Shown in pieces: positions 2,807 to 62,353 of a DNA stretch of 64,000 nt (its first letter is position 1; every line of letters begins with the position of its first letter). Source of the stretch: Candidatus Saccharimonadales bacterium. Its GTDB lineage: Bacteria; Patescibacteriota; Saccharimonadia; Saccharimonadales; UBA4665. Where the stretch lies: assembly GCA_036276195.1 (NCBI GenBank), contig DATBED010000042.1, positions 1,044 through 65,043 of the forward strand. The letters are read 5' to 3'. Both the position numbers and the translations under genes were made by a program. The notes beneath the pieces are model-generated. The model made no database searches, had not been told where the DNA came from, and saw nothing but the letters and a program-made list of their open reading frames with translations.

Positions 2807-3901
2807 ATGAATCCTCAAACAAATAATCCAGACCCCTTGGCAAACGGGCAGCCGGTGGCTGTGCCTTTTCAGCCTGGCGAGGTTTCGATTCAACCGGCCG
2901 GCTTGCCGCGTGCCGAAGGTCAGCGCTTCGCGGCGCCGATTAGCTTTAGTGGACCAATAAGTACCGGTGAGCCGGTCATTCCCATCCAGCCGCCAGCCCA
3001 GCCGTTGACTGTGCCATTGCCGCCGCCAGTGATCCAGCCCCACACCCTGGCACCACCGGTGCCGGTTGGTGGTGTCATGCCGGAGCGGCCAGGCCCGCCT
3101 TCGCCGCCGCAACCGGTGGCCACTCAAGCCGCGTCGCCGCAGGCCAAAACCGGTACTGGCGGTACGCCGCCGGTCCATTCGCACAGCACCCAAAACTCTC
3201 TGCAAATCGCTGAAATTCGCGACGGCATCGTAATCATGAGTGACGGATCATTTAGAGCAGTGCTAATGGTTAAAAGTATCAACTTCGATCTGATGAGCCA
3301 GCAAGAGCAAGAGGCGGTGGAGTATTCCTACCAGGGCTTTTTGAACTCGCTGTACTTTCCGGTTCAGATCTTTATTCGCTCGCAAAAGGTCGACCTGCAG
3401 CCCTACATTGAGAAGCTAGATAAAATCCGAACCGAGCACGACAACATGTTGCTGGCGCTGATGATGGAGGATTATATCGGCTACATTGATGCCCTTAGCC
3501 AACAGACCAACATCATGGACAAGAAGTTTTACATTGTGGTTCCTTTCTTCCCTGTGGTTGACGCCCAGCAGGCGCTGACCCAAAGCAAGAACTTCCTAAC
3601 CGGCTTGGGCAGCCTGTTCAACAAGCAAGACAAGCACGTGGTGATCAACGAGGCCGATCTGGAAAACGCCAAAACCGAGCTGCGCAACCGGGTGCAGGCG
3701 GCGCTGGCCGGCTTGCAACAGTGCGGTATTCAAGGCCTGCCGCTCGACACCCAAGAGCTGATCGAGCTGTATTACGACTCTTACAACCCCGACACGGCTA
3801 CCCGCCAACAGCTCAAGAATTTCGACCATTTGACGGCCGACATTGTCACCAAAGGGCAGGGCGCCGCACCGCAGGCCCACTTGCAGAGGGAGCTTAACTG
3901 A
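2807..3901 (+). CDS. VirB4 N-terminal-domain-like protein without P-loop, proline-rich N-terminus
   Basis: 364 aa. The first ~140 aa are Pro-rich. The segment IAEIRDGIVIMSDGSFRAVLMVKSINFDLMSQQEQEAVEYSYQGFLNSLYFPVQIFIRS resembles the N-domain of Gram-positive VirB4/TraE proteins. The stop overlaps the next ATG (TGATG). Confidence 0.45.
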   Translation: MNPQTNNPDPLANGQPVAVPFQPGEVSIQPAGLPRAEGQRFAAPISFSGPISTGEPVIPIQPPAQPLTVPLPPPVIQPHTLAPPVPVGGVMPERPGPPSPPQPVATQAASPQAKTGTGGTPPVHSHSTQNSLQIAEIRDGIVIMSDGSFRAVLMVKSINFDLMSQQEQEAVEYSYQGFLNSLYFPVQIFIRSQKVDLQPYIEKLDKIRTEHDNMLLALMMEDYIGYIDALSQQTNIMDKKFYIVVPFFPVVDAQQALTQSKNFLTGLGSLFNKQDKHVVINEADLENAKTELRNRVQAALAGLQQCGIQGLPLDTQELIELYYDSYNPDTATRQQLKNFDHLTADIVTKGQGAAPQAHLQRELN

Positions 3902-22003: not shown

Positions 22004-22208
22004 TCCCCCGAATATACGTCAAGACTTTTCTACAACGGGGGCATTTTATCTAAAGAATTACTGGTTTTAAGTTTTTAACGGAATTTTGTTAATCGGCAAA
22101 TCCCTAAGGTGTTAAAATAAACAGTTTCACAAAATTCCGTTAAAAACTTAAAAGGCTGAAAGCGTTCAACTAAGAACCCTGTTGTAAATTTTAAGGGTTT
22201 CGGCGGCC
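22004..22208. repeat. copy C of the 3-copy element, the most complete copy (boxes 22075-22092 and 22126-22143)
   Basis: It contains the cccccg/cggggg module, both boxes (which form a perfect 19-bp inverted repeat here) and the aaccct-N13-agggtt module. Positions 22166-22208 overlap the 3' end of the GT4 gene. Confidence 0.85.
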
Positions 22209-59348: not shown

Positions 59349-59825
59349 ATGAACGAAAAGCAAACAGCCGAAACCGTGCGGCCAACCAAAAAGCAAAAAG
59401 AACTGCTAACCTTTATCGAGGCCTTTATTAACGAGCACGGCTACAGCCCGAGCTACCGCGAGATCATGAATGGCCTTAACTACACTTCGGTGGCTACAGT
59501 GGCGCTACACGTTAATAACCTAATCAAGCGTGGCCATTTGCACAAACGTGATCACTCGGCTAGGTCGCTCGAAGTGGTCACTTCTGGCGATAAAACTAAG
59601 GTCACCTCCAACCAAGTTGCTCCCAGCGAAGAGAAGTGGCTGGTCGAAAAGGTCGAACACGCCTTCACCCAAACCGAAAACTTGGGCAACGAGCTAGCCG
59701 AAACCAGCCTGGACCACCTGTATGTGCTGATCGGCGCTCTTAGAGTACTTGGCCTGGAAGGTGCCGCCCAGAGCTTTATGCCGCGCCTGAACGCCCTAAA
59801 AAGCCGTTCCACCCCCCAAACTTGA
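59349..59825 (+). CDS. LexA-type DNA-binding-domain protein lacking the S24 peptidase domain
   Basis: 158 aa. The N-terminus PTKKQKELLTFIEAFINEHGYSPSYREIMNGLNYTSVATVALHVNNLIKRGHL matches the LexA wHTH. No Ala-Gly / Ser-Lys autocleavage module is present. Confidence 0.65.
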   Translation: MNEKQTAETVRPTKKQKELLTFIEAFINEHGYSPSYREIMNGLNYTSVATVALHVNNLIKRGHLHKRDHSARSLEVVTSGDKTKVTSNQVAPSEEKWLVEKVEHAFTQTENLGNELAETSLDHLYVLIGALRVLGLEGAAQSFMPRLNALKSRSTPQT

Positions 59826-60034
59826 CAAGATATGTATGTATAATGTCTATATGGCAAGTACCCAATATCTTAATAACATACCCCAGCAAAACGATAACTT
59901 TGACTGGCTCTTTAATCAAAATACCTTAGACGAATCCTTCGACGAGGCTATTCAAGATCAGTCAAAGATAGATGAAGAACTTTGGTAATGATTTGATGCT
60001 CGCTGAAGTTTTGCAGTAATTAATACTATATCTA

Positions 60035-60215
60035 GCGCCACCGCCGGCTGCTACACTACTAAATGTATTAACAATTGAGCTGGAATCCCGTGCAAATCGG
60101 GAACTGTGCCGCAACGGTAAGCCCAAAAGGCAAGTCCGATACAGCTTCTTAAGCCTCTCGAGCAAGAGCACCTAGACACCTAGTCTTCGGAGCCCTCGCC
60201 CGCCAGGCCGAGGGT
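60035..60215 (+). ncRNA. probable cobalamin (B12) riboswitch with SD-sequestering hairpin
   Basis: The core GGAATCCCGTGCAAATCGGGAACTGTGCCGCAACGGTAAGC (60082-60122) closely parallels the conserved GGGAA..GGTG.AA..CC...C.G..CCGC.AC.GTAA core. A short hairpin gcc-caaaa-ggc follows. A B12-box-like AAGTCCGATACAGC lies at 60132-60145. The helix gagctg (60077-60082) / cagctt (60142-60147) closes the core. The hairpin ccctcg (60193-98) / cgaggg (60209-14) covers the GAGG SD. Confidence 0.65.
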
Positions 60216-60220
60216 ATTTA

Positions 60221-61741
60221 ATGGAAAACCTGGCCGTAGCAGCCGCACCAAACCAACATCTTACGCTAGTCGAAGATATCGAAACCGGGCCACCCGTGTT
60301 GCCTCTAGTTTTTGAATCGACCCGTCTAGATGTTGAGGAACTCGTGCGGCATCGATCAGACCGCTTTATTGGCGAGGCGCTGGTTGGCCACGAAGTAGTC
60401 GTGTCGTCCGAGCTGAAAACTGAAGACAGAAATGACTCTTTAAGAGACGCGATTCACCGCGGCGCCGCAGGCGACCCGGTGGCTGACGCCTTATGCGAAG
60501 ACAGCATAATCGCCGATGTCGGCGAGAGAATTATAAAGGTCGGCGATGTCACCAAAGTACTAGAAGTGATTACTGACTCTAACGAGACTCATCAGCATGG
60601 CCAGACTGGCCGTCAAAGGCAGGCCAATGCACTACGCTCAGCGGGAGGCTGGCAAATGCTGGGTCGGTTCGGGGCCAATGCGCGCAATTTCTTCCGTATC
60701 GATACTTACAGAATGATGGGATTGCTTGAAGACTACAGGGCGATAGTATTTGAACTCATGCCTCGAGACATCATGACCACAAAAGAGCTAGACAAGAACC
60801 ACTTCTTTACCAAAACAATGAGCATCTCCGTACAATCCACTACGGTCGAAGAGGGAGCATTAGAAATAGAAACTGCACTGGTGGCAGGAGTCAAAAAGCC
60901 TGGCGCTGAGCCGCATGACGTCGAGATGGTAGACTCCACGGTGGAAAGCTGGGGCCTTGACTGGAAGGGTAAGACCACTACCGAGAAAATCAATATAGTC
61001 GTGTTGGTTCACAAAAGTTTAACCCCAAACGGCATCATAGACATCGTAAAGCACATGGATGATCTCAATGGCGGCACCTTCTTCGGTGAAGATCGCCCAC
61101 GCCAGAGTTACCTTGAGTATCTTGAGTTTTGCCGTGAAAGAAAGGCCGCCTTTTGGCCAAAGGTTCAGGCAATCAAAGCAGAACTCTATTCTAGGAAGGC
61201 CGAAGCAACGACTGACCCAGCGGGCGCCGAACTACTTGATGAAATTTCCGAGAAGCACATGGTCGAAAAGGCCGTTGAGGATATTTCAATCGACCCCATG
61301 GTTTTCGGTCCGGTATCGGCCGTCCAAATTGTTGAAGCCCGGCACTATAAGGCTATAGGCAATTATGAGAGGGCTTGTCTGGCTACTCAAGAAGCAATTG
61401 AGAATGCCGATTCAGGTGCGTGCAATGGTATCAAAAAGAAAGGCAGGCGCTCTCGTCGTAAGCATGGTTTGGACAGCGACTTTGATGATTTGAGCTTCAA
61501 CTTTGGTGAGGATGAATCAAATAACGACGATGAGAGCGGAGTTTGCAAAGAGACGAAGGATGGTGACGAGAAGAAGTGCCCGGAGTGTAAGAAAAAAGTC
61601 AAAGCCATAGTTCCCAAAAAGGGCGGAACAATATATTGCGATCAGAAAGGGTGTAAGCTGGAAGCTCCTGAATGGCTTATAGAAGCTCGAATACGCAATA
61701 ATGCCACCACCAAAAAAAGGTGGATTTACAGCATTACCTAG
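60221..61741 (+). CDS. hypothetical 506-aa protein with C-terminal Cys-cluster (zinc-ribbon-like)
   Basis: GAGG lies 7 nt upstream of the ATG. No TM or signal sequence and no family recognised. The C-terminus is a basic patch KKKGRRSRRKHG, an acidic run, then CKETKDGDEKKCPECKKK...YCDQKGC. Confidence 0.6.
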   Translation: MENLAVAAAPNQHLTLVEDIETGPPVLPLVFESTRLDVEELVRHRSDRFIGEALVGHEVVVSSELKTEDRNDSLRDAIHRGAAGDPVADALCEDSIIADVGERIIKVGDVTKVLEVITDSNETHQHGQTGRQRQANALRSAGGWQMLGRFGANARNFFRIDTYRMMGLLEDYRAIVFELMPRDIMTTKELDKNHFFTKTMSISVQSTTVEEGALEIETALVAGVKKPGAEPHDVEMVDSTVESWGLDWKGKTTTEKINIVVLVHKSLTPNGIIDIVKHMDDLNGGTFFGEDRPRQSYLEYLEFCRERKAAFWPKVQAIKAELYSRKAEATTDPAGAELLDEISEKHMVEKAVEDISIDPMVFGPVSAVQIVEARHYKAIGNYERACLATQEAIENADSGACNGIKKKGRRSRRKHGLDSDFDDLSFNFGEDESNNDDESGVCKETKDGDEKKCPECKKKVKAIVPKKGGTIYCDQKGCKLEAPEWLIEARIRNNATTKKRWIYSIT

Positions 61742-61762: not shown

Positions 61763-62353
61763 ATGGCTAGGATTGGGATTTACGCCGGAACGTTTGATCC
61801 GGTGCACAGCGGGCACATGGCCTTCGCGCTGCAGGCGCTGCGGGCGGCCAAGCTCGACCAGGTCTATTTTTTGCCCGAGCGGCGGCCGCGCAATAAACAG
61901 CAGGTCGAGCACTTCGGCCACCGCGTGGGCATGCTCAACCGGGCGACCAAACCCTACCCCGAGTTCGAGGTGCTGGAGCTGGTCGACGTCAGCTTCAGTG
62001 TTGAACGCACATTGTCTTTTCTGCAGGGCTTGTTCCCAGATGATGACCTGGTGTTTTTATTTGGCTCGGATATAATCCCCAACTTGGCCGAGTGGCCACA
62101 TGCCGATAAGTTACTCGAATCTAGTGAGCTGGTTATTGGCTTGCGGTTTAAGGATGATCGGGCGACGATTCACAAAATTGTCGAGAGCTGGCAGGTACAG
62201 CCCCAGACCGTAACAATTTTTGAAAGCTTTGCGCCCGAAGTATCATCTGGCAAGGTCCGCGAAGCTTTGCGCAAGCGACAAGCGGCCGCAGGCTTGCTCA
62301 AAAGCGTGGAGCGCTACAGCGACCACCACTGGCTCTATGTTTCCCTAGCCTAA
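61763..62353 (+). CDS. nadD: nicotinate/nicotinamide-nucleotide adenylyltransferase-like cytidylyltransferase
   Basis: 196 aa. IGIYAGTFDPVHSGHM is the (H/T)xGH motif. C-terminal SSGKVRE is ISSTxxR-like. Confidence 0.65.
   Translation: MARIGIYAGTFDPVHSGHMAFALQALRAAKLDQVYFLPERRPRNKQQVEHFGHRVGMLNRATKPYPEFEVLELVDVSFSVERTLSFLQGLFPDDDLVFLFGSDIIPNLAEWPHADKLLESSELVIGLRFKDDRATIHKIVESWQVQPQTVTIFESFAPEVSSGKVREALRKRQAAAGLLKSVERYSDHHWLYVSLA

Follow-up and report, generated by a model that had tools for sequence, protein, structure and literature searches.

Compact class-II cobalamin riboswitches such as env8HyCbl are reportedly described by Johnson et al. in 2012, along with Polaski et al. in 2016. In cobalamin riboswitches the signal is passed on by the kissing of L5 with L13, the kissing loop being displayed on a stem-loop (Polaski et al. 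2016, PMC5028336). Such kissing loops always leave one or more nucleotides unpaired; the wild-type linker of the env8 class-II switch measures 7 nucleotides (nt), a length that matters for docking, and the ribosome-binding site of env8 lies within L13 (PMC5028336). In Mycobacterium tuberculosis, an atypical B12 riboswitch is reported upstream of ppe2, in a system that involves translation of an upstream open reading frame (uORF; PMC11260477). We report here on a leader found in a 64,000-nt stretch of the metagenome-assembled genome of a Candidatus Saccharimonadales bacterium (TM7, Patescibacteria; contig DATBED010000042.1), called the window below. The leader precedes an open reading frame (ORF) of 506 amino acids (aa), named X hereafter, which is followed by a nadD-like gene. 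Judging from sequence comparison, and with a probability that we place at about 80%, it would be a functional compact class-II-like cobalamin riboswitch, through which B12 represses the operon of X and the nadD-like gene. A literature search returned no paper on natural cobalamin riboswitches in Saccharibacteria or Patescibacteria.

The aptamer core and its conservation

The P3-P6 four-way junction of a cobalamin riboswitch was found at 60077-60147 on the plus strand (elements are listed in Table 1). The aptamer ends 73 nt before the AUG of X at 60221, on the same strand as X, and a conserved Shine-Dalgarno (SD) hairpin lies in between. An earlier note on this DNA, made from the letters alone, had listed a conserved core, a P4 hairpin, a stub hairpin, a B12-box-like segment, a closing helix and the SD hairpin; all of them were recovered in place.

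Scanning one genome per species yielded 39 loci of X orthologues (designated L followed by a number), 37 of which had upstream sequence, and the leader was common to all 37. The 12-mer CTGTGCCGCAAC was exact in 34 of these leaders, and compensated variants of it occurred in L011, L021 and L031. Covariation was counted in an alignment, A2, of 33 distinct leaders. These are related sequences with their P6 extensions trimmed, and the pairs are those of a structure taken from one of them, the window; read with these limits, 88.7% of the cells were paired, compared to 79.8% in shuffles, and 16 pairs had changed on both sides (99 cells), values that 0 of 500 shuffles reached. When the 3′ partners were slid by 1 to 3 columns as a control, pairing fell to 31-48%. 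Changes on both sides affected 5 of the 6 pairs of P3, 4 of the 5 pairs of P4 (9-17 compensated sequences each), both pairs of P5 (in three variant leaders) and one of the three pairs of P6, where G-C was replaced by U-A in five leaders. The columns of the conserved core, namely GGAA, the L4 motif GUGNAAnUC, GCCGCAAC-GUAA and the B12 box, are present in the window and invariant across the 33 leaders. The conservation and covariation in relatives that the earlier note had called for are thus both observed. A family-specific covariance model built from A2 (R1) detected a single copy in each locus, always immediately before X, and no further copy in the window; its score on 60062-60169 was 86.5 bits, the window itself being in the seed.

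Rfam gathering scores were reached by 13 of the 37 leaders, seven of them with RF01689 (AdoCbl-II, up to 47.9 bits) and six with RF00174 (Cobalamin), and by 6 of 14 further loci beyond the 37. Orthologous leaders without a P6 stub, which carry GGUUAAAGCCCGAUAC, scored 41-49 bits on RF01689, above gathering. In the window the best Rfam match was to RF00174, at 60082-60142, with E = 7.6e-6 when 601 nt were searched and 8.1e-4 for the 64-kb window, both strands and 4227 families. It was the sole credible match in the window, the next best being meaningless miRNA matches (E ~0.2), and the RF01689 score, hidden by clan competition, was lower. The alignment is local, running from model position 47 to 167 of 189, and covers the last pair of P3 as well as P4, P5 and P6; only a 4-nt loop stands for the 62-position P6 extension and J6/3 lacks one base, with posterior probabilities of the alignment to the consensus mostly at their maximum. 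Folding of the single sequence alone gave no support, since the minimum free energy (MFE) of the whole leader was not more stable than that of shuffles (z = −0.53). The identity of the aptamer is therefore based on orthologous leaders that pass Rfam and on helices that covary, and not on the score of the window alone. By sequence and covariation, the leader is a member of the cobalamin riboswitch clan (Rfam CL00101), and it stands, as the earlier note had proposed, before a protein that has no relative of known function.

In class I cobalamin switches, the P6 extension shapes selectivity for the upper ligand. Among the orthologous leaders this extension varies from 3 nt (GGUUAAAGCCCGAUAC) to 176 nt, with 14 nt in the window, and J6/3 is, as just mentioned, shorter than in the RF00174 consensus. 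Together with the broad sensitivity of cobalamin riboswitches to corrinoids, as reported in PMC9600662, these features would suit a cobalamin-type fold that senses another corrinoid, for instance cobinamide or a host-supplied non-cobalamin cobamide. We consider this improbable, as the core nucleotides match the cobalamin consensus and no sequence pointer to another ligand was found. As to other variations in length, P6 insertions of 109-176 nt were seen in L007, L012, L019, L034 and L038, an extra hairpin inside the L4 loop in L015 and L023, and an extra hairpin in the linker between aptamer and P13 in L016, L019, L021 and L032.

P13, the SD hairpin and a putative relay

A P13 hairpin at 60155-60168, absent from the earlier note, is the candidate connection between the aptamer and the SD. 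It is present in 36 of the 37 loci plus the window, and its stem covaries among CUCC/GGAG, CUCU/AGAG and CUUC/GAAG, that is, by C-G, U-A and U-G pairs. Its loop is essentially invariant, as is L5 (UGCCG), to which L13, CG(A)GCA, is complementary with one bulged A on the L13 side; 98.8% of the cells are compatible with this pairing. By analogy with described cobalamin switches, we infer an L5-L13 kissing interaction in this leader, the window agreeing with three points made in PMC5028336: loop complementarity presented on a stem-loop, an unpaired nucleotide and a 7-nt linker.

Further downstream, the SD of X (GAGGG, 60210-14) is embedded in the 3′ arm of a second hairpin and separated from the AUG by 6 nt, UAUUUA; the probability that the SD is unpaired in the window is below 0.003. 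An equivalent SD hairpin was found in about 29 of 33 relatives. Compared to random windows of the same loci, the 42 SD-proximal nt had a mean z of −2.2 and ranked in the top 5% in 23 of 33 cases, the window itself standing in the top 1% (−16.3 versus a mean of −6.7 kcal/mol). Many relatives show complementarity between the anti-SD arm (e.g. CCCUUGCUCG) and the loop plus 3′ arm of P13 (CGAGCAGGAG). This alternative helix is the best structure when the SD is forced open, at a cost of 0-5 kcal/mol in about 20 loci, and it belongs to the unconstrained MFE structure in several. The anti-sequestor duplex was better than random controls in 11 of 33 loci, versus 1.7 expected, and always mapped to the anti-SD arm. 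This pairing in many relatives therefore suggests an OFF switch that works by relay. In three loci, L027, L037 and L039, the second hairpin is absent and the 3′ arm of P13 (AGGAG, AAGAGG or GAGGAG) serves as the SD, at a distance of 6-10 nt from the AUG; this direct design is likely the ancestor or a derivative of the relay design. A uORF following the GGAG of P13 was considered as well and rejected: AUGs are present at this place in some loci but lack conservation, and the window has none.

A U-rich tract usually comes right after the SD hairpin, the tail of most relatives being UAUUUUU(U)AUG with 5-7 U, and the hairpin may for this reason also act as a transcription terminator. The same aptamer could then exert a mainly transcriptional control, in which the hairpin would work as an intrinsic terminator, the loop plus 3′ arm of P13 would oppose it as an anti-terminator, and SD burial would be a secondary effect, all the more since an anti-terminator-like alternative helix is common. 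We hold this to be rather unlikely. The tail of the window, UAUUUAAUG, is weaker, with only 3 U in its first six bases, and a generic terminator scan did not call the SD hairpin of the window. Moreover the hairpin has the SD as its 3′ arm, the end of which lies 6 nt from the AUG, in keeping with translational control, although the two modes are not exclusive.

Upstream of the aptamer, a conserved block containing ACTAYATNTAGYG is followed by an extended −10-like element at a fixed spacing of 24-25 nt, start to start (occurrences in Table 1 are out of 48 loci: L001-L039, L049, L078, L088, L091, L102, L103, L166, L168 and the window). The exact upstream motif is unique in the 64-kb window. Judged from this conservation, the two elements probably form a locus-specific promoter, in which an extended −10 is joined by an operator or −35-region element; transcription would begin near 60063-60065. 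A generic sigma-70 scan did not call the TGnTAnACT promoter. We also considered that the upstream block and TGCTACACT might form an RNA hairpin (UAGCG/UGCUA); its closing positions pair inconsistently across loci on manual reading, and the promoter is favoured because the 24-nt spacing is fixed. The block ACTAYATNTAGYG is more conserved than a −35 hexamer requires and has a palindrome-like core, CTAnATnTAG. A transcription factor, for example the LexA-domain protein encoded just upstream, could use this block as its operator and so provide a second regulatory input.

Translational control by relay would then proceed as follows. A transcript starting near 60064, from the conserved extended −10 promoter, would fold at 60077-60147 into the P3-P6 four-way junction and bind a corrinoid. 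With ligand bound, L5 (60107-11) would kiss L13 (60159-64) and P13 would be locked; the anti-SD arm (60193-98) would then be free to pair with the SD (60209-14), and the hairpin so formed would prevent the 506-aa ORF from being translated. In the ligand-free RNA, the anti-SD arm would instead be taken up by the loop and 3′ arm of P13, leaving the SD free, a state that is clear in many relatives and weak in the window.

Several observations weigh against a B12-repressed riboswitch at this locus. The earlier note had looked to a cmsearch score above the gathering threshold of RF00174 or RF01689; with RF00174 the window obtained 30.1 bits, 1.4 below the gathering score of 31.5, and the whole 64-kb window gave zero Rfam matches at gathering thresholds. 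An outer P1 helix, UUAA/UUAA, was dropped, with 61% of its cells paired and support for its two outer pairs only. The kissing pairs are without covariation support because L5 and L13 never vary. In addition, every SD-open alternative in the window is less stable than the SD hairpin by 9-10 kcal/mol, and the predicted anti-sequestor duplex of the window (−7.3 kcal/mol) does not outdo random controls. A thermodynamic switch is thus not evident in the window, and control would have to be kinetic or take another route. The translational OFF platform put forward in the earlier note is plausible: its SD hairpin proved real, conserved and unusually stable, while the alternative pairing of the ON state is weak in the window.

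The sub-threshold score and an SD hairpin that is thermodynamically locked, with no good competitor, are what a decaying relic would display, an aptamer that no longer regulates and an SD hairpin that sets a low constitutive translation. We find this very improbable for the window copy. Every invariant position of the core is kept, the P3-P6 and P13 pairs are intact, and neither L5 nor L13 departs from the family consensus; the low Rfam score is explained by missing peripheral parts, the local alignment stopping at P3 and the P6 extension being tiny, and not by broken core pairs. That the match to the B12 core arose by chance is hardly credible: the sub-threshold score is the sole argument in its favour, against E = 8e-4 in the window, strong covariation, and the presence of the leader in 37 of 37 orthologous loci and in 4 of 4 loci of a second protein family, B, described below. 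A functional cobalamin riboswitch is the reading that we retain.

Table 1. Position of the features of the leader and of the neighbouring genes in the window.
Feature	Position	Strand	Basis or remark
Gene of a LexA DNA-binding-domain protein, 158 aa, without peptidase domain	59349-59825	+	upstream of the riboswitch in most loci
50-aa ORF between the lexA-like gene and the putative riboswitch promoter	59836-59988	+	no family match
Conserved block AATACTATATCTAGCG; core ACTAYATNTAGYG at 60025-37	60022-60037	+	40/48 loci; function putative
Extended −10-like element TGCTACACT (TGnTAnACT)	60049-60057	+	33/48 loci, third hexamer base variable
Single-stranded UUAACAA just 5′ of P3	60068-60074	+	conserved in most leaders; candidate J1/3-like or P1 segment
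Cobalamin aptamer core, four-way junction	60077-60147	+	RF00174 match, compensatory changes across 33 leaders
P3, closing helix GAGCUG/CAGCUU	60077-82 with 60142-47	+	sequence, covariation
Conserved core CUGGAAUCCCGUGCAAAUCGGGAACUGUGCCGCAACGGUAAGC	60080-60122	+	read from sequence
P4; L4 UGCAAAU; hairpin UCCCG-UGCAAAU-CGGGA at 60086-60102	60086-90 with 60098-102	+	
P5; L5 UGCCG at 60107-11	60105-06 with 60112-13	+	
P6	60115-17 with 60136-38	+	
Stub extension of P6, 11-nt hairpin GCC-CAAAA-GGC	60121-60131	+	
B12 box, B12-box-like AAGUCCGAUACAGC	60132-60145	+	
Linker CUUAAGC, 7 nt (J1/13 equivalent)	60148-60154	+	sequence
P13-like hairpin CUCU-CGAGCA-AGAG; loop L13 at 60159-64	60155-60168	+	conservation, covarying stem
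Small variable hairpin CUAG-ACAC-CUAG	60172-60183	+	folds in MFE structure; unrelated hairpins here in relatives
SD-sequestering hairpin GCCCUCG-CCCGCCAGGC-CGAGGGU	60192-60215	+	−15.0 kcal/mol; conserved
ORF X, 506 aa	60221-61741	+	downstream of the riboswitch
nadD-like nucleotidyltransferase gene	61763-62353	+	PF01467; NadD NCBIfam ~1e-29, below equivalog cut-offs

Gene X, its neighbours and a riboswitch-linked superfamily

Riboswitch association is often the first clue to new vitamin-handling proteins, and Saccharibacteria have genomes of about 1 Mb and depend on host bacteria. X consists of an N-terminal segment, an alpha/beta core (residues ~25-400), a conserved Cys401 motif, an acidic disordered linker and a C-terminal CxxC...CxxC zinc ribbon. 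An AlphaFold2 model had a confident core, with 227 residues at a predicted local distance difference test score of at least 90 and a predicted TM-score of 0.68, the acidic linker before the zinc ribbon being disordered. A word-indexed database contained 14 homologues, all hypothetical proteins of Saccharibacteria or Patescibacteria, and an exhaustive search gave 437 clusters at the 50% identity level; when the X profile was used for a second protein search of the word index, nothing was added. X had no Pfam match (also when all 14 members were run), no NCBIfam, PHROG or PADLOC match, and no relative in a sequence profile search of the PDB, and Foldseek of the model against PDB and BFVD gave no match (best E 0.05). 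In these searches X thus had no homology to proteins of B12 transport, of B12 biosynthesis or salvage, or to B12-independent isozymes, a result on homology by which function is not excluded. The earlier note had stated that the regulated gene falls outside the known B12 classes. As a statement on detectable homology this stands, whereas a role outside B12 uptake, processing or bypass is not established, and to that extent the claim was overstated.

The neighbourhood is conserved in the order lexA-like gene, riboswitch, X, nadD-like gene. In the window the nadD-like gene begins 22 nt after X, and the two genes are probably co-transcribed. In about 34 of 39 loci such a gene lies downstream of X and shares its strand; it is directly next in most and overlaps the X stop codon in some. 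The LexA-like protein is 54-77% identical in near relatives. Within 10 kb of X, no B12 gene was present in the loci examined. As for the 50-aa ORF at 59836-59988, no gene was called there on X-bearing contigs (L043, L044) or on L040, and it is probably not a gene.

The same leader was also found in front of other proteins. A metagenome scan for exact matches to a 15-mer of L5/P6 produced 80 loci, 40 of them with the riboswitch. Only three of the downstream ORFs were clear members of the family of X (family A); at least nine others were different orphans of 297-554 aa, with a single weak, sub-cutoff Pfam match and none significant. Their tail is nevertheless that of X, with a small-residue-Cys-Gly/Pro motif, a linker and a CxxC...CxxC ribbon. 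Metagenome contigs that bear such orphans include L049, L053, L055, L056, L057, L073, L082 and L104.

In L088, from a close relative (riboswitch at 3348-3464, minus strand), identity to the neighbours in the window is 77% for the lexA-like gene and 69% for the nadD-like gene. The X of this locus (P0164, 469 aa) is similar to family A in its tail only (44% over 68 aa, E = 3e-17), with the Cys motif and the zinc ribbon in common, and weakly so at the N-terminus; no pairwise similarity was detected between its core and that of the window X, and hhalign of family A against this single protein aligned the zinc ribbon only. P0164 belongs to family B, all named members of which are Saccharibacteria. 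Comparison of the A and B profiles revealed the cores as remote homologues (91% probability, E = 1e-6, 178 columns, 13% identity). Family-B loci picked by the protein alone had the riboswitch directly upstream in 4 of 4 cases (47.8-89.4 bits), and nadD downstream in 3. From L088, the homology of the A and B cores and the four family-B loci, it follows that the unit of riboswitch and X is conserved while X diverges extremely fast; the X of this slot is either extremely fast-evolving or swapped like a cassette. The sequences suggest a broad riboswitch-linked superfamily with a common Cys motif and a C-terminal zinc ribbon.

Because of the strict linkage to the riboswitch, our guess is that X has a corrinoid-handling or B12-sparing role. 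We put forward, as a possibility short of even odds, that X, family B and the further orphans form a Patescibacteria-specific B12-related class, of cytoplasmic factors that may bind corrinoids, process them or spare B12; the class would be firmly tied to a cobalamin riboswitch, with a core similarity that is undetectable pairwise. If true, this would reveal the way in which obligate epibionts of minimal genome deal with a host-derived cofactor. The RNA class is already known, and what is interesting is the orphan regulon: the linkage (37 of 37 family-A and 4 of 4 family-B loci) gives a first clue to the function of a structurally unmatched orphan superfamily, and a testable handle both on the function of X and on the B12 dependence of epibionts. 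The leaders are also a naturally occurring set of aptamers that differ in P6 extension (3 to 176 nt) and in platform (direct or relayed), useful for studying the coupling between ligand binding and expression. Natural riboswitches have been proposed as expression tools for Patescibacteria (PMC11665869).

Other observations were made along the way. Riboswitches with the identical L5/P6 15-mer precede small proteins with an N-terminal hydrophobic segment, candidates for export or membrane location, in L069, L081, L083, L097, L100, L107, L119, L120 and L122. In L047, L086, L096 and L099, the riboswitch precedes proteins with a prepilin-type N-terminus; these have low model scores and probably come from other phyla. 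L068 has the riboswitch in front of a 786-aa ribonucleotide reductase with an ATP-cone; a literature search for Saccharibacteria cobalamin and ribonucleotide reductase returned nothing relevant. Far from the leader, the window contains a perfect 25-bp inverted repeat at 22065-22153 (UUUUAAGUUUUUAACGGAAUUUUGU and its complement, with a 39-nt spacer), intergenic between two minus-strand genes (−31.8 kcal/mol, z = −5.1), which gives spurious miRNA-family matches on both strands.

Comparison with described cobalamin riboswitches

With the class-I AdoCbl riboswitches (RF00174, e.g. the E. coli btuB leader), the leader shares GGAA, the GUGNAAnUC loop, GCCGCAAC..GUAA and the B12 box. It differs from them by the reduction of the 62-position P6 extension to a 4-nt loop, by model positions 1-46 and 168-189 (P1/P2), which are unmatched, and by the shorter J6/3. 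The ppe2 system of M. tuberculosis is comparable in another respect, a B12 riboswitch controlling there as well a lineage-specific gene of uncertain function and not a textbook B12 gene; however, the aptamer subtype and the organism are different, and the present leaders have no conserved uORF.

The likeness is greatest with class-II cobalamin riboswitches (RF01689, AdoCbl-II or "AdoCbl-variant", e.g. env8HyCbl). It includes the P3-P6 four-way junction, a T-loop-like L4, little or no peripheral extension on P6, a predicted OFF logic, a 7-nt single-stranded linker to P13, a loop complementary to L5 and an unpaired nucleotide on the L13 side. Compared to RF01689, which is a compact model of about 81 nt with a closing P1 helix and no P6 extension, the window has a small P6 stub, matches RF00174 best, and has a poorly supported P1. 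In contrast to env8, P13 here ends 52 nt before the AUG and the SD is located in a second, much stronger hairpin, so that the signal must be relayed; the direct, env8-like design is kept only in L027, L037 and L039. As read from the alignments, the leader is nearest to the compact class-II type, from which it differs by a relayed platform and by a tiny, variable P6 extension.

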